Shown in pieces: positions 18,136-63,695 of a stretch of 64,000 nucleotides of DNA. The position numbers and the translations under genes were made by a program. The stretch spans positions 14,116,387-14,180,386 of the forward strand of contig CP154954.1 in the NCBI GenBank assembly GCA_039621445.1, given 5' to 3'. The stretch comes from Euglena gracilis (Eukaryota). Below the pieces are notes generated by a model. That model saw only the letters and a program-made list of their open reading frames with translations. It was not told the DNA's origin and made no database searches. Numbering within the stretch: the first letter of the stretch is position 1; every line of letters begins with the position of its first letter.

Positions 18136-18236
18136 GGGGGTTGGAAAAAACACGGTGTTTCCACCGAGTTGCACTCCAAAAGGCCCACCGGTGCTTCCAC
18201 CGGGGATCTTTTGGGTGTGAACAGAGCAAAGGGCAA
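15594..18236 (-). CDS. gag: gag N-terminal part (coiled-coil plus capsid-like KPQWDGDPTTW..FFRDW); most intact copy
   Basis: 880-aa ORF just downstream of the LTR/PBS. A frameshift separates it from the CCHC-bearing C-terminal part (CFLCNKSGHMSREC). Confidence 0.8.
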   Translation of the reverse strand: MPFALFTPKRSPVEAPVGLLECNSVETPCFFQPPPQFSPPTPFHALPGLPAETAVFPALPWNPDMRLVVPEISGAVSIVEDYEEDLRDNLTPGDVYQILGQLPADHPLSKQILHVHQCVAECATMLNKVLQFDEDNQRVVNTKLEYCWNYLQEIGKYCQHNFENAGKDLQHFRESVDSILRIQLPQNFQQISETLHEAETRNDSKFLHVQDGMSHLFAKVESCSTMLLQLQHQLHVQNATPKMPEIGNFVAVEHFATLTTSFQEAQQRILHLCSEIEHLKQFQAKVQENFVPRTQIQVLEERILHLEQKSCHCAANQDGLTTLHAKNADCAQRLDFAQQQMQTDIGGINATVVGLQEHVSALSKRISDISGIQAAIGELQTRCTLLSTTVAEIRALPNVSRARISESPEFRSFYNKILGDNKKTLQAFCTSLIQLEESVNRNARSMQDEVSWLDGRISALLEKPTAENSHTTAETPTNSPHQLQIVSNAVKALAGQLRNVEESQGHLVQDLHLVSEKLPHLDDFSGYRKRIRHLETEVDRICGQLQLVEHLEETVHDLSASLDKTSTPVPVMPPPTAVSAAVGIPNVPESCSQITISGVGIPTSTANLVQPPAKTRIVPPLHWPTPQTHFSRHISDEEIDPPLENSSLHQEIQHSNLVQGMSQHPTPGIGHVSHSRSYQPPSGSGLPDHPSGFRRETRPTGRNSPHFSQFPQENPATPTLGAGNPARGSHGAENPRNAFGVKNYPDPNPWNTTEGHRVTQRDFKGTIAIANKVKPQWDGDPTTWRHFFRDWVYYWALKGPTQDPNPEVVKMEFIDCLPREERERARNLVIRNGVSFDDLVEQYASTNSSLVTRITWRRNGDNARHRIANGNPLTFGMPNG

Positions 18237-18839
18237 ATACCCCCACTTTGTTCATGGGTTACATGAGTTGCCAAATGTAACGGTGCAAGGGGTTCATCCC
18301 CTCGCTGCATCAATGATGGGTGAACCGGGATGGAGGAAGCCATTTTGCCACCTACATCCCGCACAATCAGTGACAATGATGATGAGGAGGGCTCATTGCC
18401 CCCGTGCAACAATAAAGGCGTTTCGTCCTGAGACAATGACAATTGACGCAATGTGTCTTCTTGTTGCTTGGGGAGTCGGGAATTGGAACTTGTTTCATTC
18501 GAACCGTTCCAATCCCCGCAATCTTCATCAAGATTGGTCAATGAACTCATCAACAAGTCATAATCAAATTTGCTGTTGGGGGTTGTGCTCTGCATCTTTT
18601 GAGATGGGTAAAAAGGCAAAAACCCAAAAATTCACACAAATAAGCAGTGAAACAGGGACCAGAAAGGTTGTATCGGCGAATACCGAACAGAGCCTTCTGA
18701 GACCTGTATCCTTGCTTAAAGGTTGTCTAGAGGCCAGGAACAGTACTTTCACCGTGTTTCACGGCTCAGTACGATCCTCACCACCAGTCAACCACAGAGT
18801 TTCTCTGTGTGGAACGTCTGTGTAGGATCGTTGCCTAAA

Positions 18840-26268: not shown

Positions 26269-26335
26269 TTGCTTCACTGACTCTGTCAGTGAAGAATTTT
26301 AGGATTCGGTTGATGGCAAACCAGAACCCCTGAAC

Positions 26336-42900: not shown

Positions 42901-43750
42901 TGAGGCCTTGGTACAGATGACCCCTTGGCCTTTTTTCTGGCGACTTTTTTAAATGTGGACGCCTTCGTGGCCGGCTGTGCCGTCATGGCCTGTGATGCCC
43001 TCATGGCCTGTGCAGTTTTGGCTGTCATAGCCCCGCTTGAAAGCATTGTGTGATTTGGATTGTTAGCTCCAATGACCCTGGCGCCAAAGGTCGTGTCTCC
43101 GCAGCCTTTGAGGTGCTGAGTGCACTGGATATCACCAGTTGTGCGCTGGCATGCCAAGACTGGGAGTTATCTTACCCTGCGTAATTAGGAACTCCCACCT
43201 GTATATTTTTTTTATACAGTGGCAATCAGCGTACTCCTTTGTCATGTTTGACTGTCCAAGTGATTTTGGATTGCTCTGCCCTCTGGTGTAACTTTGGAAT
43301 TTGAAGTGAGCTCCGCTGCAAGATGGTGAAAACGTCAAGGGCCAGAAGGGCTGAAGTGGAAGAAAAAGACTGGAGGCCCCCCAGGGGGAAATCGCCACAC
43401 ACCCGTTTCACAGACGCATTGGCCTGCTGGCTGCTTCTTCTGCTCCCTCCGGGGTCTTCTGACCACAGTCTGCCAAGTTCCGTGGTTGTAACTTGTGGGG
43501 GGGGTTGGATTATTGACATTTCTGATGGTTAAGGGGCAGCCACGGTTCGCAACGGTCAGTCCGCGCCATCAGGTTGTCCACCTGCTTCGGCTGCTTCCTC
43601 TTGAAGTTCTCCAGCGCTGTGCTTCTTTCAAATTGCATCTTTCATTGAACTTCTTCCAAAAAAACTCAACAATTTCTTCCTTTTTGTTCTGCACGAGCGT
43701 GTCTTTCCGGATAATTGAATTTAATTGAATTCACTTCTTCTTCTTCCAAG
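39955..43750 (-). mobile_element. Degenerate DIRS1-like retrotransposon (gag, RT, RNase H, Dam MTase, start of YR)
   Basis: KIDMKD..FHIP, FQAGCFG, YLDD (~41540), HAWGG and LYANPPWS; many frameshifts. Confidence 0.85.
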
Positions 43751-43779
43751 TGATCAGTCGTACTCACTCGAGGTAGACC

Positions 43780-46700
43780 AACAAGGGAGGAAGGGACACC
43801 GAGGGAGAAGCACAAATACCTTGTGAGGCCATGCCTTGCTCGCCGGCGGTGTTGTTTGGATTTTTTGCTGCGTTGAGTTAGGAGTCCCTACTTAGTGCCG
43901 CCTCGCCGGAGTTGGCTGACGATGCTGCTCCGACTTGGCGATGTGACTTCTTGCCACTGGGTGGGGGTCCCCCCCCCCCTTCCGCCCCCCTGGCCCCCAT
44001 TTTCTGACTGAGGGATTTTGAAGATAATTTTTCTTTTACGGGTGGTGGGGTCGGGCTCACAAGGTCTTATTGCCTCGCCCTCAGTGACCCTTACTCCCTG
44101 GTCGGTTTGCCTCGAGGGAGTACGAGACACCTCGGGCTCCGCACTTTGCCTTTGTGAGGCCTGATTGTGCACTGAAATTAGGGGGGCGTCAGCCACTTGG
44201 TCTGTGGTGGCTTCAGGGGGGGGCACCCCCATTTGCTCCAAAATTACCCACAGAAGTGCAAAAGCACTCTGATAGCGTTTTAAATTGGGGATTCTCCCCA
44301 GGAAATCGTCAATGTAATTACTCTGTATTTGTTTCCCCTCCAATATTTGCCTGAGCAAATTATACAAAGGAGGGGCCACCTGGGGGGTGGCATTTGTTCC
44401 TCCCTGCAATTTGGTGAACATACCGCTGTAGGGGGTGATTTTCAGGCAGGTGGTCCCCGGAGCTTTCATTTTTATTAATTGGGTCCACCATGTGGCTGAA
44501 TCCCAGTAGGGGGTGACCATCTAATCTTTGGTCTGGGGAAACACTTTCAACCGGGGAGAAAATTTTGAATTATTGACCAGGGATGTTTGCATAAAGATCC
44601 CCCATGTTGTCTAGTGGACATTGTAATGCATTTACTGCTGTGACATCCCAGTGGGGCCACCTGGCCACGAAATTGGGCAAGTTTTTGTTTCCTGGGGAGG
44701 CAAAAAAATCTGTTTCCAAATTGATGGATTTTTGGAGTTGCTGTCTGAGCCACTGAAAAAGTTGGGGGTGTAAGGAGTAATCCCCTTTCTCCGTTTCCCA
44801 TCTGCTTATGGGGTCTGCCAGCCATTCTTTTGAAGTCACCCAGTTCACTTGGAGGTTTACCTGGTGCTCTACGCACCATTTGAAAAATGGTCTTAGCACT
44901 GTATTGTAAGGGTCCTTTCTGCCCCCCCCCCCCCTTTGGTCAGGTAATTAGTAAATTACCTGGTTGTCTACGGACAAAGAAACTGTTTCCCCAGGTTTGC
45001 TCAAACTTTTCACAGTGCTGATAGCTGCACTGAGCTCCTTTGCTTTTATGTTTAAAATGGAGTATTTTCCAAAATTCCTGCACTAGTTCTCCTGTGTGGA
45101 TGTCCAGCCGCCCTCCCCCAGGCATGGGTGCTGCTGTCTGAGTGTAACTCCCTGGTTGTGTTTTGGGGGAAGGGTCTGCCTCCACAGGTGTCCAACACAA
45201 TTTTTATTTCCCTTAATTGGGCCTTGACTTCCTGGGAAATGGGGTGTTTTGAGTCCCAGGCGGCTGTTGACTTTCCCACCAAAAAAATTGCCAGGGTGTC
45301 CGTAAAAGCCCTTAAAAAGGGCATGGCCATTATATTGCGTCTTATTTGACCCAAAATGGCAGCCAACTGCCTTTTGGACATGTAATCTTTTTTCAAAATT
45401 TTTCCCAGTTCATTTTTTGATGGCTTTGACTTTCTTGGGGGGGGGCACCTGTAATTTCCTTCCTGGAAGTTTAGTTGAAAACCCAGATCGGTTACCACTT
45501 GTGTGTGCTGCAGGGTGGACTTTTTCACATTAATTTTGAACCCTGAATTCAGCAAATCTTTGACGACTCTTTTCAGGTGACTTTGTAAAATATTTTGGTG
45601 GGGGCCACCAGTAAAATGTCGTCCAGGTAAATAAACACCTGGATGCCTCTTTTTCTCCACAGTTTTTCGAATGTTTTCATTACTGACAGGAATATTTGGG
45701 GCATTACATTTCGCCCAAAGCAGCCTGTTTGAAATTCACAGGTCTGCCCCCCCACCTGATGCCTTAAAAATGGCCTTAGGCCTGGACTTAATGGAACATG
45801 AAAATAGTCATCTTTCAGGTCTATTTTTGCTGCCCAGTGGCCTTTTTCCAAAACTGGAAAAATGTGCTGGATATGATCCAGTTTGAAAGGTTTTACTCGA
45901 AACTGCTGATTTATTTCTCTGCGGTCGCTGATCATTCTCAATTTTGTTGTTCCCCCTTCTGGTTTCAGAAATTAGAAACCGTGGGATTATATGCTGGGTG
46001 TCTGAATGCGAAACTCGTTTTATCGACCCAGTTTTTTCGTAATCCAATAGGATTTTTTCTGCCTGGTTCAGGTCCAAGTTGGCTCTTGGTTTTGAGTAGG
46101 TAGAAAACTTGGGGGGATATACCCAATGGGGTTGAATTCATTTTTTATCAATTGACATGATCTTTTTAGACCTTTCTTAAGTTTCTGGTACAGGGAGGTA
46201 TCTCCCCATTTTTCCTCCGTGGAATTTATTTCCTGAATTATATTATTCTTTTGGGGCTGGGTGGGGGGTGTTGGACATTTCACAGCCCCTAGAGCCCTAA
46301 GGGCTTGAGCCCTTGGAAAAAGCAAATGTTCCTGGGGGGATGTGCATGCACTCTCCTCTCTTCTCACTCTCTCTCTGGAAGGTCTTGTTGTTGGAATACA
46401 TACCATAGGGCTTACTGCCCCTGTTTGGCCGATCTGGTGTGCTTGATGTTGATGGGGTTGGCCTACCATAGGGGGTCTCCGAGGGTCCCCCCCTTTTTGA
46501 TTGAATAAGTGCTGGCGAGGAGTCTCACCCTTCCTGTTGCCAGCTGGCCCCTGGGGGCCCATCTTCCTCCTGGGGCCGGGCAGGAGGCCCCCCATTTAAA
46601 TACAAAGCCCTTGCAGGGCTGTCCATTAGCTTCTGGGGGGCCTGTGAAGGACACCCCCTATGGCTTTTTTGTAGTTTATGATCTTCTTGTTGAACTTTCT

Positions 46701-47270
46701 GGCCCCAGTGGCCGTGATGTTAAAGGCTTCAATGGCCTGATTGGGTTCTGGGTCGCCATGCCCATTTGAAATCTTGAGGGGTTCTTTTGGCCCCATTCTT
46801 GACCCCTGGGTGGTGGTGTGATTGAGAAAGGATGGAGGTGGTGTGTCTGACCTATTCTGTCCCTGCCATGTCCTGTGGGGTCTGCTGGTGGCCTCCTTGG
46901 CCTTTTTTCCAGCGACTTTTGAAGCTAGTGATGCCTTCATGGCTGGTTGTGCCGTCATGGCCTTCATTGACTGTGCGGTTTTGGTTTCCATAGGCCCGCT
47001 TAAATGCATGGTGTGTTTTGAATCGTTGGCCCCATGGCCCTGGTACCAATGGCCGTAGTGGCCTGCTGGCTGTTGTCTCTGCCCATTGCGGGGTCTTCTG
47101 ACCACTGTCTGCCAGCGTCCGTGCCCATAACTTTGGGGGGTTTGGGTTGTGGAAGTTTCTTTTGGCGAATTTGTTTATGGGGAAGAGGCAGCCACAGTCG
47201 CCCGCGCCGTCAGGTGTTGTCCAGCTGCTGCTGCTTCTGCTGCTCCCTCTTGAAGTTCTCCAGCGCTGTT
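43780..47270 (-). mobile_element. Degenerate DIRS1-like copy with most of YR deleted; ICR and right end retained
   Basis: KIDLKDDYFHVP...IYLDDILL at 45573-45941, HSDSSTHAWG and DFFASPGN. ICR at ~44050-44165 and right end at ~43790-43850. Confidence 0.85.
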
Positions 47271-47274
47271 CTCG

Positions 47275-47960
47275 AACTCCCTCGAGGCATACCGAGTAGG
47301 GAGGAAGGGACACAGCGGGGGAAGCACAAAGACATTGTGAGGCCATGCCTTGCTCGCCGGCCGTTTGTTGTGAGTGCGCTGGGTTAGGGGGTCCCGCTTA
47401 GTGCCGCCTCGCCGGAGTTGGCTGCATTGTCTCCGACGTGGCGACCGTGGCGCTGTTTCTTCCCCCCCCCCCCAGCTCCCCCCCCCTGGCCCCCATCTTC
47501 TGATCGACGGTGTTTGAAGACAAATTTTGTTATATGGGTGGGGGGGGTCCCTTCCTCCCTTCTCGGTCTGCCTCGAGGGAGTACGAGACACCTCGGCCTC
47601 CGCACTTTGCCATTGTGAGGCCAGATTGTGCACTGAAAAAAGGGGGGCCAGGGCCCTATCCAAAGCACCTTGGGAACCAAGTCTTTGATAATGGGCTGTG
47701 AAAGCCTCCACCCCCTTCCACTGACCAATTTCACAAACTTCTTGGGAAGAAAGGCCCAATTTTTTGAGTAAACCAACTCCTGCCCCTCTGGTGGAGTGGG
47801 GTCCCCAAACCTGGGGGGGTACCCCCTGCTGGGCCAAAAAGTGTTCGGTTATCGAAGCAATGGTATCTGCCTTAATGGCTTTATAGGGGGGGTTTAACGT
47901 AATTAAAAGGGGGGCCCCAGGTTTCACAAGGAAACGTGTTGCTGCCACATAAGACCTCAT
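47275..47960 (-). mobile_element. DIRS right end with tyrosine recombinase C-terminus
   Basis: WGPHSTRGAG...IGQWKGVEAFTAHYQRLG (H-x-x-R, G-x-W, Y), followed by ICR/ITR motifs. Confidence 0.85.
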
Positions 47961-47964
47961 TCTA

Positions 47965-50900
47965 ATGAAAGGGAATTATTTGGGGGCACTGGCGAATAGA
48001 GACAACTCTCTCCCACTTATGGAGTTTTTGCCATTTACGTTTAATTTTGATGTAGGGTGCCCCCCCCAACACACTGATGGTTCTTTGGACCTGTGCCAAA
48101 TCAGATGATCTGTATAAACAGAGGATGTGTGAACAGAAAATGAGTTGTGTACGCAATGTACACATATCAGAGGGCAGGGGGGACCAGCCCTTGGTGGGCA
48201 CAGGAGGGGCCAGGGGGGCCCAAAATGCTCCACAATTGAACAACCACAGCCCACACATGTGGGGCATCTCCCCCAAAGGCGCCCAGTCGCCTAAACACAA
48301 ATTGGCCAAAGGATGGGAAGATGGAATCAAGGCCAAGGAGGTCAACGCTACAAGGGCCATGGGGTCCAGTTTTACAAGCAAATCCCCTCAGGAAGGGGCA
48401 GAAAAGGTCTGTCAAAACCCCCCAATTCATCTATCACAACAGCCCCTCTCAAGGGGAAAAGGGGGGGCCACAGCAGCCCCCCCAGATTTCAAGTGGGGTT
48501 GGAGGCCAAATCAAGGCCTGGAAGACCTACAGAGGGACTATGGAAAATTTTTTACACATGGAGACCTTGGAGACCAGCAGGGTGGACCCACAGTGGCCAC
48601 CAAGAAGCTAAGGGACATCATCCCCAACCAGCAGGGTGGACCCACATTGACCACCAAGAAGCTAAGAAAGCTGCTGGAGAAATCCCCCGAGGGACCCACA
48701 GAGGCCCTCTGCCAAAAAGGGGGGAAAGGGGACCCACTGTGGCCCCTTCAATGACCCAGCCTCAGGAGGAAACTGGACCCACAGTGGCCCTTTTGGAGGG
48801 AGGGGCAGAAACCCCTCCAACATTTATTTCTCAATTCCCGATCAGTCAATCAAGGGGGGGGGGACCCACAGAGGCCCCCCTATGGTATGTCAACCAACCA
48901 CATCAACATGGAGAAGACCAGATAGGCCAAACAGGGGCATTAAGCCCTATGGTATTTCTTCCAACAACAAGATCATCCAGAGAGGTGAGCAGAGAGGGAG
49001 AGAGTGCATGCACGTCCCCCCAGAAAAAATTCCTTTTTCCAAGGGCCCAAGCCCTAGGGGACCTAGGGGTGCAGTGTCCAACAGCCCCACCAGAATCATC
49101 TTATCCATAAAATAAATTAAATGGAGGAAATATGGGGAGACACCCCCCTCCATCAAAGGTTGCAAAAAAGCCTAAAAATGTACAACACCCCCAGCCCAGC
49201 CCCCCCCCCCCAAATCATCTCATCCAAGAAAGAACTTCCAGAGAGGAAAAATGGGGAGACACCCCCCTCCATCAAAGGCTGCAAAACAGCCTGAAATGGT
49301 GCACAAAACATCCCCCCCCCAACAACATGTCAACTCATCAGGGATGGCATTCAACCCCCCTGGGTCAGCCCACCAAAATTGTCCACACACCCAAAAATCA
49401 GAGCAAATTTGAACCTACCCCAAGCATAAAAAATTCCGCCAGATTACTACGAGAAATCCGGATCTGTAAAGAGTGTGAGGGATTCAACCACCCAGCACCT
49501 GATCCCTTGTTTCTGATTTCCAAACCAGAGGGGTGGGGGCAGACAAAATGGAGATTAATAAGCGATTGCAGGAAATAAATCAAAGGTTCCAAGTGAAACC
49601 TTTCAAGCTGGATCACATCCAGCACATTTTTCCAGTTTTGGAAAAAGGTCACTGGGCAGCAAAAATAGACCTGAAGGATGCCTATTTTCATATTCCAGTA
49701 AGTCCAGGCCTAAGGCCATTTTTAAGGCATCAGGTGGGGGGGGGGCAGACCTGGGATTTCCAGGCAGGCTGTTTTGGCCTGAATGTAATGCCCCAAATAT
49801 TACTGTCAGTAATGAAAACATTCGAAAAGCTGTGGAGGAAAAAGGGCATCCAGGTATTTATGTGCCTGGACGACATTTTACTGGTGGCCCCAAGACAAAT
49901 CATCTTACAAAATCACCTCAACACAGTGGTCAGGGGTTTAATTAAATCAGGACTCAAAATCAATCTAAAAACGTCCACCCTGCAGCCCACCCAAATCGTA
50001 AATCATCTTGGATTTCAACTAAACTTCCAAGAGGGAAAGTTACAGGTGCCCCCCAGAAAATAAAAACAGTAAAGAAGGAGCTGGGAAAAATATTAAAAAA
50101 AAGATTACATGTCCAAAAGGCAACTGGCTGCCATTTTGAGCCAAATCAGATGCAATCTAATGGCCATGCCCTTTCTAAGGGCCTTTACGGACGCCCTTGC
50201 AATTTTTTTGGTGGAAAATTCCACAGCCCCCTGGGACTCAAAACACCCCATTTATCAAAGAATAAGGACCGATTAAGAGAAATAAAAATTCTGCTGGACA
50301 CCTGGGGGGGCAGACCCTTCCCCCAAAGTGCAACCAGGGAGTTGCACTCAGACAGCAGTACCCATGCCTGGGGGGGCCTGGACATTCGAACAGGCAAAAT
50401 TGTGCAAGAATTTTGGGGGGAAAACTCCATTTTGCACAAAAATGTCAAAAAATTAAATGCAGCAATAAGCACAGTTCAAAGCCTCAGCCAGCCAGGGGAA
50501 ACTGTGTCCCTATCCGTGGACAATCAAGCAATTTAGTATTACTTAACAAATGGGGACGGCAGAAAGGACCCTTTCAATTCCATGCTAAGACCCTTCTTCA
50601 AATGTTGCATGGAACACAACATAAACCTGCAAGTAAAGTGGGTCTCCTCAAAAGAATGCCTGGCAGACCCCATAAACAGGTGGGAAATGGACAGGAGGGA
50701 TTACTCACTGGACCCCCAACTTTTTCAATGGCTGAGGCAGCAGTTCAAAAATTACATCAGACTAAATACAGACCTTTTTGCCTCACCAGGCAACAAAAAA
50801 ATGCCACAATTTGTGGCCAGGTGGCCCCACTGGGGAGCCACAGCAGTAGATGCATTACAATGTCCACTGGACAACATGGGGGATCTTTATGCAACCCCCC

Positions 50901-51480
50901 CCCCCCCTCGTCTGTAATCCAAAATTTTCTCCCCAGATTAAAAATGTTTCCACAGGCCAAAGTTTTGATGGTCACCCCCTACTGGGATTCGGCCACATGG
51001 TGGCCCCAGTTAATAAAAATGAAAGTTCCAGGGACCCCCCGCCTGAAAATCACCCCCTACATGAGTATGTTCACCAATTGCAGGGGGGAAAAAATGCTAC
51101 CCCCCAGGTGGCCCCTGCTTTGCATGATTTGCTCAGGCAAATTCTGGAGGGCAAACAAATACAAAATACAACCATTAACGATTTCCTGGGAAGAAACCCC
51201 AGCTTAAAGCGTTATCAAAGCGCTTTTACGCTTTTATTGGTAATTTTGGACAAAATGGGGGTACCCCCCCGTGAAGCCACCACTGACCAAGCGGTTGACG
51301 CTTTAATTCAACTGTTCGAATTTTCAAGTGCCCAAGCACGAAATGCATACAGTGCTATGCTTTTGATCCCTGGCTTTGGTGGCCTAAGGTTCCATGCCAT
51401 GTTGGCACCATTTAAAAGGTTTTGGAACCAAAACCTGGAGAAATATGGTGCATTCTGGGATCCCCGCCCAATCCTCCTGG
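47965..51480 (+). mobile_element. Degenerate DIRS1-like copy: gag, RT (49533-50063), RNase H, Dam MTase (50582-51100), YR N-terminus
   Basis: KIDLKDAYFHIP, CLDDILL, HSDSSTHAWGG, DLFASPGN and VTPYWDSATWWP. Confidence 0.85.
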
Positions 51481-52320
51481 GGGGCAAACTTTTGTCTTCT
51501 GGGCCTTCTGGCCACAGTGGTCCAAGGACCGTGGCCGTCACTGGGGGGGGGTTTGGGCTGGCAAATTTCAGGGGTGGGGGTCTGGGGGGAAAAAACGGCC
51601 ACGGTTTGCCGCGTGTTGGCCACATCTCCAAGTTCTCCAGCTTCTGCGGCCACGGCTCCAGGGCGTCCGTGGCCATGCAATTCCAATGTCTTCTCCACTG
51701 CATTGCTCATTGAAGGCAAAATTGAAAATTGATAATTGAATTCTCAATTGATATTCATCTGGTTCGTGTTCTTCTGGATATTGATTTGAGATTGACTTTT
51801 TTTTCTCGGTTCTTCTTCGTTCGTGAACTGTTTTCCGGTCTTCTGGGTGTCGAAGGGAAAGTTAGGAGTCAGCCAAACTCCGGCGAAAAAAGGCACTAAG
51901 CGGGACCCCCTAACCCAGCGCACCAAAACAATCACAACAAACGGCCGGCGAGCAAGGCATGGCCTCACAATGGCAAAGTGCGGAGCCCGTTGTGTCGTCT
52001 TGGACAGTGCATCTTTCATCGGAATTTTCAGAAACTTCAAAATTTCAGCTTTGGGCTTCTGCACGAGCGTCTTTTTTCTGTATATTTTGTGTTGATTGAT
52101 TGGCTCCTTCCTCTTCCAATTGACAAGCACTAAGGAAAACAAAATTAGGAGTCGGCCAACTCCGGCGAAGAAAGGCACTAAGCAAGCCTTCTAACCAAAT
52201 GCAGCAAACAATCCAAACAACACCGCCGGCGAGCAAGTCATGGCCTCACGAGGGCAATGTGCGGAGCCCGAGGTGTCGCCTCACTTCGCCCTCGGTGTCC
52301 CTTCCTCCCTTTGTGGGTGC
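51480..52320 (-). mobile_element. DIRS left ends (left ITR plus gag start), two fragments
   Basis: gcaaggcatggcctcacaatggcaaagtgcgg at 51952 and a variant at 52233; homologous to 20140-20420. Confidence 0.7.
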
Positions 52321-52939: not shown

Positions 52940-53640
52940 ATACAGGGGGGGGGGAAATTATGCGGTCTGGCAGGCGGGGAAAAAATGCGGAAATTATGCG
53001 GAAAAATGCGGAAAAATGCGGAAATTATGCGGAAATTATGCGGAAAAAAAATGCGGAAAATATGCGGAAAAATGCGGAAAATGCGGAAAATATGCCGAAA
53101 TTCTGTGGAGTCCCAGGTCACATGGAGAGGACAGACATATTTCTTCTAACTCACAATATGCAGGGTCCCGATGCTATTTGATTTCCATCGCCGAGTGGCG
53201 ACCGGGGTGGAAATCAGAAACAAAACACGTTCACGAAAAAAAGATGGCCCATGCGTCTTCCACCATTCAATTAACTCCTCTGGGCCGTCAATATCCCTTT
53301 TTGTGCATTGCAAATATTGTATGAAATCTTCATCACATCCGTCCAAACGCAACGCTGAGTAATCTGTGGGAGCTGATGACATAAAGGCAAATTATTTGGG
53401 AAATTATGCAAAAAAATGCGGTAATTATGCGGAAAAATGCGGAAAACGCAGGATAATGCGGAAATTATGCGGAAAAATGTGGGAAAATGCGGAAAAATGC
53501 GGAAAAAATGCGGTCAAATGCGAAAATGCGGAAAAACGCGGAAAATTTACAAAAAAAATGCGGAAAATATGCGGAAAAATGCGGAAAAATGCGGAATAAT
53601 GCGGAAATGCGGAAAAACTTAGGAGGCATAAATTGCCCAT
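52940..53640 (+). repeat. Two arrays of ~9-11-bp (A)AATGCGGAAA units, possibly a MITE or a subterminal array
   Basis: Arrays at ~52975-53100 and ~53400-53620. The block starts TA-CAGGG...aaattatgc and ends gcataaattgccc, a weak TIR. Confidence 0.8.
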
Positions 53641-55288
53641 GATAAAATTGACTGAAGTGTCACCCGGAATGCCAGAAAAATGCTGCGAAAAACAGCCAAA
53701 ATTTTCGAGTTACACATCAGATGAGAAAATTTTCGGCCATTTTGACTGCATAACAGATGAAGCGGAAAACCGCTTCCATGATTTCCGAAATTTTTTTTTT
53801 TTTAGCAGATTCACATGTAAATGCAATACAGCAAAAGGTTGCTGAAAAACTGCTAAATCGACAAACAAACAATGATGTCATCTGACCGTCCGACACACAG
53901 ATACAGAAGGAGAATATACACATAGCAAATACCTGCGTGCAAGGAAGACATCCGCATAACTAAGAAAATAAAGTAAAATGACTAATGAAGCGGAATACCG
54001 CTTCATCGACACACGCATCGCATGCGTGATACTACATGAAGTCCAACTGGATCAGATCTAACAGAAATACAGTTACATTTATGCTGTGCCGGATAAAAAG
54101 GAGGAGAGACCACGTAGCACCTTTGTGATTCACTCTGCCTGACACCGACGTTGGCCACCGTCGGTGTCGGTTGTTCCTGTGGGCTGCCTGGGCCGCAAGC
54201 GGCGGAAGCAGGCACCCGGCAGCCCCGTGGCTCCCCGCCTTGCACTACCGGAGACAGAATGGTTTTAGGCTTAGACTGATCGTGGAACCCATATATGACG
54301 TTTGTGGTGCACTTGGAGGTTTGGCGGTTGTGTAATGCGCGGAACAAATTCGTAGGTCAATGAACAGCAGATACAGAAGGTAAAGGAAGCGGCTTTCCGC
54401 TTCCTTTACACGTTTTTGTCACAATTCACAAAAAGGGGAGAGGCTGGACCGGGTCCAATTCACTTCCCCGTACCCCCGAACGGTGCCCAGCCGTCAGGGG
54501 TTCGGTTACGGCTTTTGCTGGACCAGGCAGGCGATCGTACAATCCAGGCTCCCCAGTTATCTCAGTACCTAAACGTTGCGTACTGTACGATGTACCTTGC
54601 GAAATGCACTTTATGGTTCTGTCAAACGTTAAACGGTTAACAACATCGCGCATCGCATTGCAATGCTTACGAAGCCACGCAGAATGCAACGTCAGATTCC
54701 ATAGGAAGCGGTTTTCCGCTTCTTTTAACAAAATATACAATATGTTCAATGTCTCGCGAGGTACATAACTGTTTACCGGTTGCATGTACCATCAACAGGA
54801 CAACAGTGTTACTGTTATCATCCAAATTGAAGAACACGATTACAGTGGTGGACCGAAGCCAAGAATGGTACGCAACTGGACGTGCTCATATCGCATTGTT
54901 CGCTACGTCACTTGCGCTGAGTTGATCGAGTCCATGAGAAGTCCTCTGCAGACATGACCTTGGCGGAGTTTTTATTAAGAACAACATAGAAAACGGTGTT
55001 ATAACTCCGACAGAATGAAAAGGAAGCGGAAAACCGCTTCACCTACGACTGAGATCGCGACCACATGCAAATTCATACCGAGTGGTGTGACCACAAACTA
55101 CTACATTGTTCAAACCACACGCATTCAGGTCGTTTAACTGAACGTGCTCTACGGGCTGCCGCTGGCAATGGCCAGCAAAGGCCGTATGTGGTGGGGACTG
55201 CCCACCCCCTCCACGTACTGTCTGTGGTTCCCTACCAGTGACAACCTCCTTTTTGCCTTTACTGGAGGCAGCGGGAATCCGCTTCATA

Positions 55289-55778
55289 CCCGCCCCCCCC
55301 CGGGCAATTGTCGCGTGACAAATCGGGCAGCACGGAGGGGGGTGACAATTTCCCGGGGTGACAATTTGGCCGGCACAGAGGGGGGTGACAATTGCCCGGG
55401 GGCGTCAATTGTCCGGGGGCGTCAATTGCCCACCCATGTAGGCCACATTAAATCCAAATGACCAAAAACACCATCTGAAACACCAGTGAACACGCAAAAA
55501 TGAAGCTATGTTTGTGATATTGTGCACAACATTTGGTATGTGACATTTCTCAGCACGTTCTAGCGAAATAGAGGATCAATCAAGTCGTGTCGGCGAAAAG
55601 AAAGTTCACAAACATCTTCTGTGGTGGGGGGTGACAAATTGGGCAGCACGGACGGGGGTGACAATTTCCCGGGGTGACAAATTGGCCGGCACAGCCAGGG
55701 GTGACAATTGCCCGGGGGCGTCAATTGCCCGGGGGCGTCAATTGCCCGGGGGCGTCAATTGCCCGGGGGGGGGGCGGG
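55289..55778. mobile_element. 490-bp MITE with TA target duplication (Tc1/mariner-type)
   Basis: TIRs CCCG-C9/10-GGGCAATTG, TA on both sides (55287-88 and 55779-80), and internal repeats gggggcgtcaattgccc and ggggtgacaatt. Confidence 0.85.
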
Positions 55779-56554
55779 TACGAAGCCACATGTGTGGGTA
55801 GCGACTGTGATCACCCAGGCAGTCAGGTTCATTAGTACAGAGCTTTAACGCAATTTGTTAGACGACGTTTGTTTTCTGGTGTCACCGTTCTAAATCACAT
55901 TGGTGTGGAAGGCTAAAGATAGTTGGGATCTCGGTGTATTTACCGAGATCAAGATACTACATACGCCTAAGCTGTTCGATCAGTTGGTTAGTCCGCAGGG
56001 TAGGGTAGTGACTGTGATCACGGCAGGCAGTCAAGCAAATGCGGGTAGTGACTGTGATCACTCAGGCAGTTGTACCAAAAAAAAAACAGGCATTAATTTT
56101 AAAATGACACAGAGAAGGAAGCGTTTTTCCGCTTCATGAAAAAATAGCAGAAAAAATACGTAAATCCAGCCCTACGTTTCTGAATCGCGAGGTTTCTAAC
56201 CGACGTAACGTGGCAGTTGTACCACAAACCACATCGATTCATCACAAGTTCCCAGGAACTCGTGTTTTGGGAAGGATTTTACCTGACATCGCGCTCTGGA
56301 TGCGCCCAATTTGAGAGACCAACGTCCTGTTGCACCCCCCCCGTTTCAAAATCACAATACCCTTGCCAAACAGCACCAAAAAACAGCAATAACCTCCATA
56401 CGAAGCGTAAAACCGCTTCATATGTCTCATTGAAGGCAATACAACAAAGAGTTTCTGGTTTAATGTGTTATAAAAAGCAGATCCATAAGAGGAAGCGGTT
56501 ATCCGCTTCCTTTCTTTCAGTATATCCGTGTCTTTCCGTTGGATCAGAGAACAC

Positions 56555-59196
56555 ATGCCTGCTGTTGCATCGCCCGTCGAATTGGTCCTGAACATTCGGG
56601 GCCTGCGCGCGTATCTGCAACATGGTAGGCCTCGTACGGGATGGGACCTCTTTCACGATGCCTTCGTGGGTCGTCAACTAGGTGCCCAGGCGATTGTGGC
56701 ACTGTGCTGTATGGTGCGGCTGAATCGCCGTTCACGTCGCACAGTGGAAGCGGTGAGTGAGGCCTACATGCGGTCTTCATCTCACCGTCCACGTTGGCTT
56801 GGACAGCTCGCCACCGGGTCGTATGCTGTGTGGCGTACGCTGCATCGACAAGCGCAACCCCTCGCAGACCCCAATACAGTGGTCGAGAACACTCCCAGCA
56901 TGCGGGCACTGCAGCAGCTTCCGAGAGCAATGCTGGGGAACGGACCCGGCCACCCCGAACCTGAGCCAGAACCTCACTGCTTTTGGAACAGTGCAGATTG
57001 CAAGCCGTACTCAGAATCGTCTTGAAATCATTCCCAGAGTTCAATGACGGCCTACCGGTCACTGGTTGCTAAAAGAGAAATGAATGTATTTTGATGAAGT
57101 AAATGACAATGACAGCGGAAAACCGCTTGCTGTTGAAACAACTTGATTTTTAGATCAGTAAATCTGATTCAAATGCAAGAGCTAAATCATTCCGAATGAT
57201 AACAACGTGCGTAGTTTGCACTGATGTCGCTTCCTGCAGCTGGAGAACCTGATGCACCGCCAGGGAACGAGGACACGCTCCGTGAGTTTCCCGGTGTCTC
57301 CAGGACATCCAGAACTGTGTGAGTTGATTGGCAACCTGGAGGTGGTGGCGACCTCCTGTTGTACGGCGTCGCCGCTGCTGCACCAAGCCGTGGGTCGCAT
57401 ACGCCGGATGCAGCTCACCGAGACGAGCATCAGGGTGCCGCTGGATGTGGTGCGGACCGACATGCGGTCCCTGCAGTGGCGGCCGCTGTCGCTGACCGAG
57501 CAGGTGGTGTCGGCCAACCTGGACCTGCTGCTGGTGTTGCAGACGGCCAGATCCCTGCAGCACCTCACGCGCCGCCAGAAGCCGCTACTAGTGGACGAGA
57601 ACATCCACTACCGGTGCCTGCAGCTGTTGTACTCAGCGTCAGCATCGCGGTACTACGTGTCCCGCTACCTGGCCGAGGTTCCCCTGCTGTACGGCATCTG
57701 GCACGCGTACAAGCACACGGTGACCGTCGTCTACCGGGCGTTCTTCCCGGTGCTGGCCCACCTGGAGGTCTCCCCTGGTGACCACCACCTGACGTGCAGC
57801 CTTCGGAGTCATCGAAAAGTGCTGTACATGGAGAAGCTGTTTGCCAGCCTTTTGTTGTCCCGCGAGTCCGTCACATCGCATTCTGAGTCGCGTATAGCAC
57901 CAGAGAAGCGGTTTTACGCTTCATTGGCTCCTGGCATGCAATTTAAGGAAGTGTATGCCTTGCTATTTGTGACTCAGTAGTCAACTGGCGACCAGAATGG
58001 AGGACTGGACCCGCTCTGCGACAACAAGAGCTGAGCAACAGCAGCAACTCCGATCGTACCCGTACCAGCTGATGCAGGGGCTGTGGAACATCCTGGCGTT
58101 CTATGCCCCGGCCTTGCTGCACCTGGGCCACGAGGTCCGTCGGTGTACCTGGAGAGGCAGACCTGAGGACGAGGTGAAGGGTACCACCGCTCGCCTGGTG
58201 CTGCAGAAGTGTCTGCTGCTGCTGATGCACCTGGAGAGTTTGATCAATCCCGGAAGACCGCCATCGGAGTACCAGCGGACCATCTCCCTGGCCCTGCTGG
58301 GGTGGCAGGACTGGATGTCCCGGCTGCCTGGCTGCGTGTTCGTGGAGGAGGCTGGCGAGGCCATGCTGTCGCGGCTGTCCTCTGCCTGCAAGCGGAACCC
58401 CCACGTGACCAGCTTCGAGGGTACGCTGCACCTGTTCCTGAACCTCGGCGCTCCCTCCGGTGAAGCACACCACAGCCGTGGTAGCCTCCGGAAGCAGCTG
58501 GTGCAGGAGATGTGTCGTCGTGTGCGAGGCCTGGTGGGAAGCCCTGGCGACCGTCCATTTCCAAAGAGGGTGGACAGCACCACCGTGCGGTGGCTGGTGG
58601 AACCGGAGACGTACCCGAGCTGGATGGCACCGGAACCTCTGCCAGCGCGGATGACCACTGAGCAGTTGCTACCTGTCCTGCGACACTCCCTGCAGACGCT
58701 GGTCCGAGGGCAACGCCTGGCAGCTGACGTGGAGGAGTGGCTCAGGAGAAACGTGGGTTCCGTCGATCCGGATCTGCTGCAAGAAAGAGAAGAGGCCATG
58801 GCCCCGTTCTTGGCACGCAGAAGAACCAGAGCTGACCCAGCAGGAGTTCCTCCTCAGCAATCAGATGAAGCGGAAAACCGCCTAGTGGACACGGATGAAG
58901 CGGAAAACGGCTTCGACGACAACAGAGCTGAGATGGAGGTGGTAGAGGCCTCAGCTGTGGTGGGTGACACGGAGGAGGGTAGCAGCTTGTACGAGCCACC
59001 AGAGTCCCTGTACGAGCCACCCGGTGACTTGTCGGACGGCTACGTGTCCGCGGGGGCCTCCGACGGGTTGGACTGGCTGGGATCACTGCAAGGCAGTGAT
59101 ATTTCCGACGCTTCGTCGGATGTCTCCGTGGCAGTGGTGTGTACCTGGCTATATATTGCCTCATCACGAAAGTATCACGGTTTTCTACTGTATTAG
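56555..59196 (+). CDS. Spliced gene for a putative DDE/RNase-H-fold transposase-like protein (DUF6589/Transib-RAG1-like group)
   Basis: GC-rich exons at ~56555-56990, 57240-57865 and 57978-59196. The GT-AG intron 57866-57977 keeps phase. Motifs LLVDENIHYR, LYGIWHAYKH, EVRRCTW, SEYQR and FVEEAGE. The first catalytic D was not identified. Confidence 0.55.
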
Positions 59197-59515
59197 GGAC
59201 ACGTTGGGTTCACCTGTGGAAGAAATACTCCCAAATACAAAGGCAAATACCACAACAACTGCACATAGCAATTACTCGGCAGGAAAAAGGATGTGTTTTT
59301 TCAGAGATGGTGCTGTTTGGTTTGGGTGGAGAGGTAAAAGTAGGGAGTGCTTTTGTAAACCCAAGGCAAAGGCAAATTAAATGGATGCTTTCACCCTGTT
59401 TTTCATCTTCGTTTTTGGAAATAAATGATCCCATTCCATTCATTTCTCCCTCATTTCCAACAGATTTGACAAACGGCTGCATAATTTTCCACTGTTTCCC
59501 CACAGACCAGTACGC

Positions 59516-62500
59516 ATGGCTCCGAAGAGGCTGGCGAAGGCGGACACAACGGGACAGTCGATCCCGAAGCTGCTGGAAGATGAGGAGATGTGGCTGCAGA
59601 GGGAACAGGGTGATTTATGATTCCTGTTGCTGAATGAACAGGAATGAACTTCGCTATGTCTGACATGATCACCCTCAATGGAAATACTTATGTTGACGTT
59701 CTCCACTGAATGTATGTGTGACGTGCATTGACAAACAAAAAATATCTTCGGTCCACCAATGAAGCGGAAACACGCTTCATTGCAGTGAATTGCAATTTTC
59801 TCCTAAAAAGACGTATAACTTAACTAACCCTGCAGTCGGGCAGCTGGTCCTGGACGTTGACCTGAGCCGGGGGCAGGTCCGGCAGCCCCGTCAGGAGCAC
59901 GTGAACAACCTCATCAAGGAGCTGCAGAACAATCCGCCGCAGGAGCTGGTGCTGACGGTGTGGCCGGAGAGAGGTGTCCGCCAGCCCCCTCCATTGTGTT
60001 TGTCGTTCCTGCGGATCATACCCCCACACTTCGTGTTAGGTGTTTGCCGGAAGTGGGTTGGCAATTTGGACATAGTTGTTGTGCTTCTCTCTTTCATCGT
60101 ATGGATATGATTACTTTCATGCATTGTTGGGGCAATGGATGGTTTCTGAATGTGTTCCCCTCTTCGCAGCTACGGGGAAGTGGGTCATCCTGAGTGGTCA
60201 ACATCGTTTCCTGGCTGCCTCGGCCATCGCCGACGCCGCCATCGCCGATGTCCGGCGGCCGTCAGCGTTCACCGAGAAGTTCCGGTGCAAGGTGGTGAAG
60301 GAGAACACCAGCATCATCGAGCGCCAGCAGCTGTCCGGCAGGCTGCAGGCCATGGACGGCAATGTCATGGACATGACCCTGGCCGACCGCCTGCAGTGGC
60401 TGATGAAGGAGGACACCCACAACCGGGAGATTGCCGAGGCAGAAGGAGAGGCGTACAACCCGACCAAGACCGAGCTGCTGAAGAACGTGTACAGCAAGAC
60501 GGGATGCCGGGAGACGGTGGATGGTGCCCTGGTGTGCTCTAACATGTTTGATAGTGAAGCAAAACTCATGGATGATATGTCACATGCAGTGTACGTTTGT
60601 TTGTTTTAATTCTGAGAAAGCACCAAAGCAAGCGTTTTCCCGCTTCATTATCCTTCTTTTTTGTATGGTTTATCACAGCTGACGTGGGTGAAGGCCATGA
60701 TCCCGGTGACGGAGTGGGTGCTGCAGAGTGGGACCGAGGCCGTCGAGGTGGTGAAGAAGATGGAGGCCCGTGGTGGGGACCGTGTGTCCCCACACACGTT
60801 CAAGTGCCTGGAGGCCATCTACCACCCGGACGACTACGCGGAGCTGGCCCAGGTGATGCTGGACGAGAAGGCCAAGCCCACCTCCCAACGTTTGGTCCAG
60901 GCTTCTATCTTGTGATTCCACATTCCATATTACACATTAATGGAAGAAGTGACCAATCTCTGCACTGTTGAAATATTTGGAAAATACTCCTTTTCTGTTT
61001 GAGAAAGCGTGTTTCCGCTTCATTTGGACAATCTTTTTATTTTTTATGGTGATTTGTTCCTTTTATGTATGTACATTGAAGTCTGCTGCCAGGCAGGAGA
61101 CCGCTAGGCTGGTGCGCCGCAGGACCTGGACGTGGCTGCTGCTGCACCCGGAGCTGGATGCTCACGTTCTTCACCCTTCAAGGAGTATGTACTGTTTGGC
61201 ATATGCGTTTGCTTAACGTGACTGTGTTCACATGCATGATTGATTGGTCTACACCTTCATGAAAATCAATTTCAATGACTCGTAATTTTTTAAATCTGAA
61301 ATATGAAGCGGAAAAACACTTCACTCCCTCACTGTTGTGTCTCCCACTGCAGAGGACCTGGCCCAGGTGGCCGCGCTGGAGACCGCCCTGCAGCCGGAGC
61401 ACATCAAGGTGCCGATGACCGGGGTGAAGTGGAGGTGGTCGCCTGAGGCCCCCTGTGCGGGGCCAAACTTCTTGTTCGTATTAAACAAAATGGTGATGCT
61501 AATTTGTTGGTATGTATTGTATCCCTCCCTGTGTATGATGGCTGAATGTGGAATGCACACACCACTCCCACCCTCTGTCACTGAGTGACAGTTGAGCCCC
61601 GGCATTGGCCGCCCATCGAGGTGGTACGCCGGGCGCCGCTGTGGTCCGACCCCCTGTACGACGGCCTCCGGCAGCGGCTGCTGGGCCAGGTGATGGAGCC
61701 CGCCGTCAAGGTCGGGGGCATCTTCGGCACCCTGGACCTGCACGGTATGACCTTGGCGAGGCTGGAGGAGGAGGTGTCCAGCACCCAGGAGATCTCCACG
61801 CCCGGCCGGGCCACGGCCAAGCGGGCTGCCCAACCCGAGGCGCAGAAGACCGGCCTCATCCACGTGGTGCCCATGCAGTCCACGGACAACGCCTGGCCGA
61901 ACGACCTCCGCCTGCTGGAGCTGGGGGCAGTGGTGGTAGAGGTGGAGACCCAGCAGTTCGCCCTGGATGGCAGCCAACACGCGGAGGTGGGCAGGACCAT
62001 GATGCTGCGGGGTACGCCGATGATCGCCGTGGGTGCGGACATCGACCTGCGGGACCTCCATGGGCGACTGTCGATGATGATGGGCAGCGAGCGGAAGATC
62101 TTCCGCAAGGACATCCTGCTGTGCATCCCGCCGCCAACGCCGGACCCGGACTGGCAGTGGGCTCGACGAACTTTGGCGGTGTTCACGACGGAGATCAAGC
62201 ATATGAAGGTAATTTTTGTGTTTCTGTTGTATTGAAGCGGAAAAGCGCTTCGCAGTTTCAAAGGTCTTTTATACATCTGTTTCTTGGTTCATGCATATGA
62301 CAAATGCGAATGAGATTCACGGTCCGTATCGTTTGTGTTCCCCTCACGTAGGACCCCGTCCAGATCTCCCTGCAGGGGATGCACCAGGGCCCGGGTCGCA
62401 CTTTCTTTGTCGTTTTACTGGTGCTGTTGCATACAATTATTTAATCCAATGAATTTGAATATGTCCTGATTCGGTAGACCAAATTACGCTTAGTGTGTGT

Positions 62501-63695
62501 TGCTTTACAATGCTCATTGTGACTGTGAGTTGCTAATTCATGTTCTCGAGTGTGTCCCGGTGCACCCGACGTTGCCCACCTCGTTCCCGTGGAGGTCGTC
62601 TGGTGGTTCCTGCGGCGGCTGGACGTGGCCACCGCGGACTGGGTGATGGTGATCAGCTCCCGGGCGGTGCTGACCGCCCAGCTGGCGGTGCGGGCGGGCA
62701 GCGCCATCAACTTGCTGTGGGGCGTGCCGACCCTGCAGGCGGGAGACGCGGAGGCGCAGCAGCGCCTCCAGTGCCTGGACGACGTCGGCCGGGAAGTGAG
62801 GGTGGCCGACGGACTGCCCCCTGTGGTCTGGGATCAGGGTCGTCAATGCTGTCATATGATGTCTTCTAACCAGAAATGGTTTCTGTCGTTTCAGTACTCC
62901 TTCATTCAGGATATCTTTCCATTACATCTTGTCCATATTTTTTTAAAACTATCAGAAAGGAAGCGTAAAACCGCTTCAAATCAATACTTCATTTTTTTAC
63001 TAGTGTTTTCTTGTCTCCAGTTCAAACTATCTCTGTGTACATATTGATTGCCCTGCTGACAAGGACGTCCACAGCAGGATCATCCGCCACCTGGCTCTGA
63101 ACGTCTCCGGCTTCATCCCTGAGGCGACGGAGACGGCCGCCCCAGCGCCCACGCAGGGGGAGCCCCCGGCCAAGCAGGGCGGCCAGGACCCGAAGGAGGC
63201 CAAGTCCAAGGAGACCAAGGAGTCCCAGGACAAGCCGAAGGAGAAGGAGACCAAGGACAAGCCGGACAAGAAGACCAAGGACACGCCTAAGAAGGGCGCC
63301 CGGGGGAAGCAGTCCGCCTCCTCGCAGCAGCCGGCCCGGCACTCCTACGAGTCGTCCCCGGAACCGCCTGAGCGCCCGACACACAGGGAGCGGCCTAATG
63401 GTGGATTGTCTGTGATGTCTGTTTCCTTATGTCATGTTTCCATTTTGGCAGTAATCTGACAATTCTGTTTGATGAAGCGTTTTTCCGCTTCCTTGTGGCT
63501 GAATCATAGTAATTTTTCTGAGACTGGAAATGCGTTCCTGTTCGACTGCTAATTGGTTCCACTTCGATGCAACACAATGGCATCTAATCAAAACCGATAT
63601 CTGTGTTCCACGCCTCCCATTTGCGCCGCTCCCTGTTGCCGAGGAAGCGGTCCGCCCTGGAGAACATCGAGGAGATGCTGGTGGACGACGAGTGA
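59516..63695 (+). CDS. Multi-exon gene with an N-terminal ParB/Srx-like domain, an unknown middle region and a Lys/Glu-rich tail
   Basis: Exons 59516-59609, 59836-59973, 60170-60531, 60679-~60894, 61082-61184, 61353-~61430, ~61595-62208, 62352-62394, 62551-~62838, ~63060-63400 and ~63640-63695. Most GT-AG junctions keep phase. The spliced N-terminus reads GQVRQPRQEHVNNLIKEL...LTVW...KWVILSGQHRFLAA. Confidence 0.75.

Follow-up and report, generated by a model that had tools for sequence, protein, structure and literature searches.

What accounts for a short palindrome that recurs twenty times within 10 kb of the Euglena gracilis genome, in introns and between genes alike? The palindrome, GAAGCGG-N4-CCGCTTC, was noticed in a preliminary description of a 64,000-nucleotide stretch (contig CP154954.1 of assembly GCA_039621445.1, positions 14,116,387 to 14,180,386 of the forward strand; hereafter the window, in whose coordinates positions are given), where it was taken for a dimer-binding DNA site placed in introns. 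I argue here, tentatively, that a dimeric protein binds the motif as double-stranded DNA, and that this protein is probably a product of the transposon-like unit that occupies the last part of the window. Unusual points are the even spacing of the copies, their one-per-intron pattern, their retention in diverged copies of the unit and the previously undescribed transposase family around them.

A 22-nt palindrome with fixed geometry

GAAGCGG-N4-CCGCTTC occurs six times in perfect form in the window and not once in 100 shuffles of it. With up to two mismatches it occurs 19 times, always between 53759 and 63491, whereas the shuffles averaged 0.22 and never exceeded 2. A variant at 57112 (ACAGCGG-AAAA-CCGCTTG), whose inner core is perfect, brings the total to 20. 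The cluster is real and far from chance and, as had been claimed, the first 53.7 kb contain no copy (none before 53759 at up to two mismatches).

The distance between the arms is constant. When the arms GAAGCG and CGCTTC were scanned at spacings of 0 to 20 nt, with at most one mismatch per arm, spacing 6 gave 20 matches and any other spacing 0 to 4, which bears out the 7+4+7 geometry of the preliminary description. Of these matches, 18 belong to the 20 motif copies; the other two are a degenerate look-alike (51217) and a GC-rich palindrome in an exon (62751) that is unrelated. From position 53700 onward the half-site words GAAGCGG and CCGCTTC occur 27 times, twice outside full copies. Information content over the 20 copies defines the unit as a 22-nt palindrome, A-K-GAAGCG-K-WWWW-M-CGCTTC-M-T: an A stands two bases before the arm in 17 of 20 copies, a G or a T one base before it in 10 and 8 respectively, and the mirror image follows the other arm. 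Information is high in each half out to ±2 nt and drops to background further out.

The spacer is mostly AAAA or TTTT and is A-rich on the plus strand in 12 copies and T-rich in 8, so that the AT-richness in either orientation reported before is correct. The spacers do not vary freely, however: in oriented copies the central hexamers are mostly GAAAAC (six copies), GAAAAA (three), TAAAAC (three) and GAAACA (two), with six singletons. Changes at the inner arm base are of one kind, all six in the left arm and three of four in the right arm being G-to-T on the arm's own strand; they therefore keep the centre of the motif A/T-rich and lengthen it.

Elsewhere in the 64 kb, the sole motif-like words are a perfect inner core lacking the outer arm bases (AGCGGCTTTCCGCT, 4401-4414, within a retrotransposon open reading frame (ORF)) and the look-alike mentioned above (AAAGCGCTTTTACGCTTT, 51217-51234, two mismatches, in a retroelement region). 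Both are probably due to chance.

Independent arms and the folding of the motif

A palindrome in introns might act in RNA rather than in DNA. According to this hypothesis the motif would form a hairpin in the primary transcript, with a stem of 6-9 bp and a loop of 4-6 nt, that marks the RNA for a binding protein, affects splicing or retention, or triggers decay of unspliced RNA. This supposes that the cluster is read into a single long precursor, which happens often in Euglenozoa. The mixed orientation of the centres would be harmless to such a stem, which folds either way, and its core 6 bp are nearly invariant. I nevertheless consider an RNA hairpin unlikely. The six core pairs, being invariant or nearly so, are uninformative for covariation, and the two pairs that do vary are mostly broken and uncompensated: the inner pair is broken in 10 of the 20 copies and is never T-A, while the next pair outward from the arms is of Watson-Crick type in six copies, as compared to about 6.9 expected from the make-up of the columns. 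Over the 11-pair stem the covariation score was 0.104 versus 0.091 in shuffles, a value reached by 133 of 500 shuffles, and three pairs were changed on both sides versus 4.1 in shuffles. The preliminary description had held that the arm mismatches are not compensatory, and this stands; the RNA-stem covariation that it had named as contrary evidence is absent. The predicted stability (DNA parameters) ranges from -2.3 to -14.2 kcal/mol among variants, Rfam gave no match at E up to 1 between 52500 and 64000, and I know of no double-strand RNA enzyme for which so short a stem would suffice.

The uncompensated mismatches would fit recognition of half-sites on duplex DNA; they would fit descent of the copies from a few variant sources equally well. 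Preference for a double-stranded DNA dimer site over an RNA hairpin is partly supported by the independence of the arms, the fixed spacing and the lack of covariation, but a copied and decaying repeat gives the same features. The alternative that has to be weighed most closely is a dispersed repeat, selfish or neutral: a unit of some 22-35 nt, able to form a hairpin, that is copied into non-coding DNA by gene-conversion-like patching, template switching or an unknown nickase, functionless for host and element and surviving where it is harmless. I regard this as possible, if doubtful. In its favour, identical variant 18-mers recur at different places (56402 is identical to 62960 and to the reverse complement of 57905, and 56118 to 63474), and the perfect copy forms a stable hairpin as single-stranded DNA (-8.1 kcal/mol, z -4.9). 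On the other hand, neutral decay would scatter the substitutions, yet they cluster at two symmetric positions and belong to a single type, and no nested copies were seen.

A classical tiny MITE (miniature inverted-repeat transposable element), moved by cut and paste by a transposase and flanked by a target-site duplication, has also to be considered: the motif does consist of two inverted arms, it lies in a unit with a transposase gene, and a MITE-like element is adjacent (55281-55786). This explanation is largely refuted and I consider it very improbable. No target-site duplication was detected at six boundary offsets (0-5) for lengths of 2, 3, 4, 5 and 8 nt, the 0-4 matches in 20 copies being as at random positions, a lack that also speaks against a selfish repeat. 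Most copies share no sequence beyond ±2 nt, and no motif-sized omission (18-22 nt) at a motif was present among the three omissions found in the four sequencing runs compared below. Flanking homology pointing to remnants of a tiny MITE, which the preliminary description had set against its own proposal, is therefore mostly lacking, although a subset of copies shares 6-20 nt of one flank.

Placement relative to coding sequence

Non-coding DNA holds 18 of the 20 copies, coding sequence making up 46% of the stretch (P=7.5e-4). As noted earlier the motif is almost never in exons, the two cases being 58867 and 58897. The intron copies listed previously (57905, 59761, 60629, 61004, 61305, 62234 and 62960) are indeed intronic, and 57112 has to be added to them. 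To describe the motif as placed in introns is nonetheless misleading: its density is similar in the spacer upstream of gene 1 (9 copies in 2.8 kb) and in introns (9 in 2.2 kb), two copies are exonic, and the unit is transposon-like and not an ordinary host gene. Exons keep the motif out, introns do not attract it, and its intron location is incidental.

Within non-coding DNA the copies are regularly distributed. The nine intron copies are found one each in nine of the 12 introns and never more (P=0.012 with an approximate gene model), a pattern that an RNA hairpin would also account for. The nine upstream copies are evenly spaced, with gaps of 228, 399, 319, 318, 245, 357, 284 and 90 nt once a 493-nt inserted element is subtracted (coefficient of variation 0.32, P=0.0017). 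This is more even than random insertion of a selfish repeat would give. An origin of the upstream copies as a tandem array was rejected, the segments between copies not being alike.

The copies lie at variable distances from the splice sites, 18-151 nt in the case of the donor and 30-152 nt in that of the acceptor, which argues against a role of the motif as an RNA hairpin. Since the introns are also otherwise unrelated, introners were rejected as well. A link to the non-conventional intron code (CAG...CTG) was rejected as a general rule, since by eye no copy but the 57112 variant agrees with it. Two half-sites that coincide with splice junctions (56747 and 63644) were dropped as candidates because homologues show that 56753 is not a donor.

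The two exon copies are translated as DEAENRL and DEAENGF in the variable acidic tail of gene 1. A Euglena gracilis transcript protein (P0043) has DEAENRL...DEADTRF at the corresponding place, and the peptides have no counterpart in gene 1 family members at 40-45% identity. This part of the coding tail is a 30-nt tandem duplication (58861-58920), each unit of which carries one degenerate motif copy and reads D-E-A-E-N-R/G-L/F; in the same frame the consensus motif would read DEAENRF.

Diverged copies of the stretch

Each of 14 DNA sequencing runs contains only 35-41% of the words of the stretch. Reads and contigs were compared to the window in four runs, X15, X16 and X24 among them, contigs being prone to drop rare variants. 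The matching reads and contigs are mostly 95-99% alike to the window and not identical (558 of 976 in X15, 81 of 89 in X24). These data show that the motif-bearing stretch is multi-copy in the Euglena nuclear genome.

Some contigs match the window at the motif, then differ over 19-39 letters, then match again. In four of them the motif is at the window's own spot, ahead of exon start 60679, exon start 61353, position 54430 and position 54753; the intervening 19-28 nt are different or strongly diverged. The 26 contig letters before 60679 are about 42% identical to the 26 of the window, and the 23 before 61353 are recognisably related to the window's 25 but diverged. This suggests that the motif outlasts its surroundings in diverged copies. 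In two of these copies the distance to the 3' splice site is kept (31 versus 32 nt, and 28 versus 30 nt), as an RNA hairpin might require. In one diverged contig (before 61353) the motif's centre reads as the reverse complement of the centre in the window's copy and the odd base is on the other arm, as expected from inversion of the loop; a selfish repeat would be expected to undergo the same flip by way of a hairpin or cruciform.

In two RNA read sets only 45 and 89 reads fitted, mostly from relatives; those from the upstream spacer are few and come from relatives, which is a further point against an RNA hairpin. One X15 contig joins 60531 to 60684 with five differing letters in between, as expected if intron 60532-60678 had been spliced out in a relative.

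The motif was also found in contigs of many other contexts, in one of them as two copies about 45 nt apart, as a selfish repeat would predict. Such contigs would equally be predicted if the motif were a host-wide site, read by a host chromatin, replication or base-modification factor in the non-coding DNA of genes generally, and absent from the first 53.7 kb only because that DNA is recently inserted retrotransposon. Indeed, all copy-free DNA of the window is retroelement DNA, so that this part offers no ordinary gene for comparison and the contrast cannot separate this unit from all older DNA. I hold a host-wide site to be improbable. The other contexts that could be placed are relatives of this stretch, the strings of the motif were found in no paper by full-text searches, and the motif is unmentioned in the available main parts, supplements apart, of two articles on Euglena introns (PMC11170887, PMC12501133). 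More generally, literature searches on Euglena with palindromes, introns, repeats or transposons, and on DUF6589, returned no description of the motif or of the element. In public collections the exact 20-mer gave five single matches in metagenome contigs and the 18-mer five in viral contigs, none with a second true copy nearby. These matches are due to chance or to terminator-like hairpins.

Gene content of the motif-bearing unit

The last 10 kb of the window contain two genes on the plus strand, with GC-rich exons and AT-richer GT-AG introns (Table 1). The introns are supported by frame-keeping splice sites, by proteins of relatives that are colinear across them and, for 60532-60678, by the exon-joining contig; the boundaries are approximate at 57000, 62559 and 63391.

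Gene 1 is a member of a protein family, 750-810 residues long, that is known only from metagenome, Logan and Euglena transcript data and splits into 19 clusters when grouped at 90% identity. A protein with 89% identity to the large exon of gene 1 shares a 90% cluster with a Euglena gracilis entry of EukProt. Sources of the family (proteins P0044-P0049) are Euglena transcripts and metagenome contigs, freshwater or other. None was found in prokaryote genome contigs or viral contigs. An origin from a giant endogenous virus was considered and rejected, nothing in the available part of PMC12455990 fitting the unit.

Nine members searched against Pfam gave no family at E up to 1. Language-model features bring the family close to the fungal DUF6589 (score 0.94, 196 of 256 shared), features that have a low recognition value. 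The predicted structure of a full-length relative, built on a 22-row alignment (pLDDT 69.4, pTM 0.63), matches the fold of solved transposases over the catalytic core, the best Foldseek match being the Hermes transposase (E 6.6e-3). The family would thus consist of undescribed DDE transposases with an RNase H fold and a helical insertion, similar to those of the P element/hAT/Transib class. The motif W-x-D-N-W is present in all eight full-length members, and L-L-V-D-E-N and F-V-E-E-x-x-E are nearly invariant; by their strand order in the model these D, D and E blocks would fit a catalytic triad. The copy in the window lacks about 65 residues of its relatives, including the W-x-D-N-W/F-C-W block with the putative first catalytic Asp, and the frame changes there, indicating that this copy is defective. 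In seven RNA reads from relatives the block is joined to sequence from 56932 onward.

Gene 2 has no Pfam family either; its relatives number 36 representatives at E up to 1e-3. Its exon 3 is nearest to phage ParB_N/DUF6551 clusters by language-model features only (0.90-0.93, the family being assigned to 15-19% of cluster members). Searches of Pfam, PHROGs, NCBIfam and PDB sequences gave no ParB match for exons searched unjoined, the putative domain being split by an intron. The 205-residue exon 61594-62208 is predicted to end in an Alba/IF3-C-like fold, a weak match. Taken together, the multi-copy signals and the gene content point to a multi-copy, intron-bearing, transposon-like unit with a DDE transposase gene and gene 2.

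A binding site or a copied repeat?

The reading of the motif as a binding site is suggested by symmetric half-sites that vary independently, their fixed spacing, an A/T centre in either orientation, the even distribution, the retention in diverged copies and the transposon context. In addition, the neighbouring foldback element likewise bears a repeated palindrome of its own (GGGCAATTGCCC). From these features I infer that the motif is under constraint, that a dimer reads it and which proteins are candidates for the binder. A dimeric, sequence-specific protein would span the A/T-tract centre, each of its subunits recognising one 9-bp half. By analogy with known transposons, the binder would most likely be encoded by the element, as the N-terminal domain of the transposase or the product of gene 2. 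Sites would be tolerated wherever the DNA is non-coding, that is, in the 2.8 kb upstream of gene 1 and in most introns; exclusion from coding sequence makes the intron location a by-product.

Several observations weigh against a binding site. Most generally, every feature that supports it could also be obtained from a copied, slowly decaying palindromic repeat, and there are direct signs of copying. Self-comparison detected flank similarity in two pairs only, 54360-54407/56470-56513 and 60993-61024/63463-63494. In the first, copies 54386 and 56492 share about 20 nt; in the second, the flanks of 61004 and 63474 are alike at 10 of 11 bases. An inverted-repeat search yielded a loose group of four (59761, 61004, 62234 and 63474) with about 12 nt in common on one side. 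Judging from these flanks, some copies have arisen by copying of a unit of about 30-35 nt, and the exon copies, absent from the wider family, also point to copying. The even spacing could have arisen without function, for instance if close copies collapse by deletion between repeats, in which case it would be compatible with a selfish repeat as well. The retention test is biased, since a contig has to match the motif at 95% or more to appear in it at all. Finally, neither gene has a Pfam family, no long-range terminal inverted repeat was found between 52500 and 64000, nor were the ends of the unit found there by terminal repeats or a target-site duplication (the unit may extend past the end of the window), and the copies are spread over 10 kb, gene 2 introns included, and not gathered near termini.

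A selfish repeat has to accommodate contrary facts of its own. It would have to have spared 53.7 kb of retroelement DNA that is partly frame-broken and so not very young, and to have been kept at intron positions in diverged copies whose flanks differ, with the bias just mentioned.

Comparison with known systems

Short transposase-binding repeats are a familiar feature of DNA transposons: AAACGG hexamers in Ac/Ds, sub-terminal repeats in Hermes, and the 12-bp TNPA motifs of En/Spm, which are best bound as inverted pairs. The present motif resembles them in being a short sequence repeated many times, in both orientations, inside an element with a DDE transposase and an accessory gene, and its paired inverted layout suggests a dimer. 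It differs in a way that does not help the proposal of a binding site, in that the known repeats lie within a few hundred bp of the ends, whereas here 20 copies extend over at least 10 kb, about 230-400 bp apart in non-coding DNA. Bacterial REP sequences are another class of short hairpin-forming repeats to which the motif can be likened.

The ParB-family sites (parS, KorB operators) offer a different parallel: there, too, a single palindrome with arms of 7-9 bp is scattered in many copies about a gene, here that of a possible ParB_N-like protein. The known sites are without a 4-nt spacer, and the likeness of gene 2 consists of language-model features and a G-Q-H-R-F-L-A-A stretch only. One can nevertheless imagine a eukaryotic DNA transposon in whose spacer and introns about 20 palindromic docking sites are set out at even intervals for a dimeric DNA-binding protein encoded by the element, a possible candidate being the ParB_N-like gene 2 product with its Alba-like fold. 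This would be a parS/ParB-like or operator-array system that coats, compacts, pairs or silences the element, its sites being kept by selection across diverged lineages and their centres flipped via cruciforms. I offer it as a speculation that is unlikely to be right as a whole.

The closest parallel for a selfish repeat is found in the organelle genomes of Volvox carteri. As described by Smith and Lee (2009; available part of PMC2670323), the Volvox repeats are hairpin-forming, lie in intergenic and intronic DNA at high local density and have 4-nt A/T loops in both orientations (TAAA or TTTA), as do the present copies in spacer and intron DNA. According to the same source they form a family of 11-77 nt with nested copies, whereas the Euglena motif is nuclear, is one sharply defined 22-mer, is not nested and is evenly spaced in a transposon-like unit.

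Introner elements and the non-conventional introns of Euglena are likewise cases in which a hairpin-capable repeat is associated with euglenid introns and a link to transposons is suspected (PMC12501133, PMC11170887, PMC7789003, each in its available part). In those cases the inverted repeats are situated at the ends of the intron and set its splice sites (in Euglena, N3-CDG ... CH'G-N5-6|R). The present palindrome is internal to GT-AG introns, at variable distance from their ends, the rest of the introns is unrelated, and equal numbers of copies are found outside introns.

Neighbouring DNA

The foldback element of Table 1 sits 3 nt 3' of motif copy 55268. It contains internal 17- and 43-nt sub-repeats, each with the palindrome given above or a close variant of it. 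It is very high in copy number: the depth of its words in X15 and X16 is 10-100 times that of its surroundings. In one X16 contig, 55288 is followed by a lone T and then by 55782, which is what an empty site would look like. To the left of the first motif copy, the unit of the satellite shares with the motif the 8-mer GCGGAAAA, that is, the inner arm plus spacer, for which the estimated probability by chance is of the order of 1 in 100. The satellite may have originated from the motif, or one factor may read both.

The first 53.7 kb, which lack the motif, are retroelement DNA with Ty3/gypsy-type ORFs for reverse transcriptase (RT), RNase H, integrase and chromodomain; an integrase core lies at 34.8 kb and an RT at 49.5 kb. 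Positions 1-35900 comprise at least two Ty3/gypsy-type, chromodomain-bearing long terminal repeat (LTR) retrotransposons in opposite orientations, with frames of up to 889 residues. Two large ORFs in this part (15594-18251 and 26303-28318) have weak coiled-coil-like matches and no family. The region between 40 and 52 kb holds frame-broken copies of one RT-bearing element on both strands, two inverted copies being discernible within 40200-52000, on the minus strand at 40-47 kb and on the plus strand at 48-52 kb. They share peptides, e.g., an RT block and a conserved downstream region, and may represent a DIRS-like element.

Table 1. Motif copies, genes and repeats in the last part of the window.
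Feature	Position	Strand	Description
Motif copy	53759..53776		Perfect; spacer AAAA; upstream spacer
Motif copy	53987..54004		Perfect; spacer AATA; upstream spacer
Motif copy	54386..54403		Perfect; spacer CTTT; palindrome extends to 30 nt (54380-54409), DNA hairpin -14.2 kcal/mol
Motif copy	54705..54722		Perfect; spacer TTTT
Motif copy	55023..55040		Perfect; spacer AAAA
Motif copy	55268..55285		One mismatch; adjoins foldback element 55281-55786
Motif copy	56118..56135		Variant GAAGCGT TTTT CCGCTTC
Motif copy	56402..56419		Variant GAAGCGT AAAA CCGCTTC
Motif copy	56492..56509		Perfect; spacer TTAT; 46 nt upstream of gene 1 ATG
Motif copy	57112..57129		Variant ACAGCGG AAAA CCGCTTG; (former) gene 1 intron 57000-57239
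Motif copy	57905..57922		Gene 1 intron 57887-57995
Two degenerate motif copies	58867-58884, 58897-58914	+	30 nt apart; last coding exon of gene 1
Motif copy	59761..59778		Gene 2 intron 59610-59835
Motif copy	60629..60646		Gene 2 intron 60532-60678
Motif copy	61004..61021		Gene 2 intron 60895-61081; flank TTCTGTTTGA common with copy 63474
Motif copy	61305..61322		Gene 2 intron 61185-61352
Motif copy	62234..62251		Gene 2 intron 62209-62351; 25 nt 3' of donor
Motif copy	62960..62977		Gene 2 intron about 62839-63063
Motif copy	63474..63491		Last gene 2 intron, about 63391-63643
Gene 1	56555..59145	+	Defective copy, DDE-transposase-like family (predicted); exons about 56555-56999, 57240-57886, 57996-59145
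Gene 2	59516..63695	+	About 11 exons; GT-AG introns; no Pfam family
Foldback or MITE-like element	55281..55786		About 505 bp; 24-nt terminal inverted repeats (92% complementary)
Satellite (AAAAATGCGG)n	52981-53101, 53399-53618	+	10-11-nt unit; two blocks around a 300-nt unique piece; left of first motif copy

Implications

Repeats make up 58.8% of the Euglena genome, and unclassified repeats alone 32.7%, according to the available part of PMC11252322. The DNA transposons of Euglena genomes are barely described. If the motif is a binding site of the unit that carries it, this locus would add a new euglenid transposase family with a P-element/hAT-like fold and an unusual layout of cis-acting sites, distributed evenly through spacer and introns instead of being packed at the ends, and the 22-bp palindrome would be a ready-made probe for its binder. 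If, on the contrary, the motif is a selfish repeat, it would be the shortest dispersed palindromic repeat in a eukaryotic nucleus that I know of, with visible flipping of its loop, and would bear on the spread of hairpin-forming DNA and on the suspected transposon origin of euglenid introns. Under either reading, annotation of this repeat family gains a practical marker in the motif.

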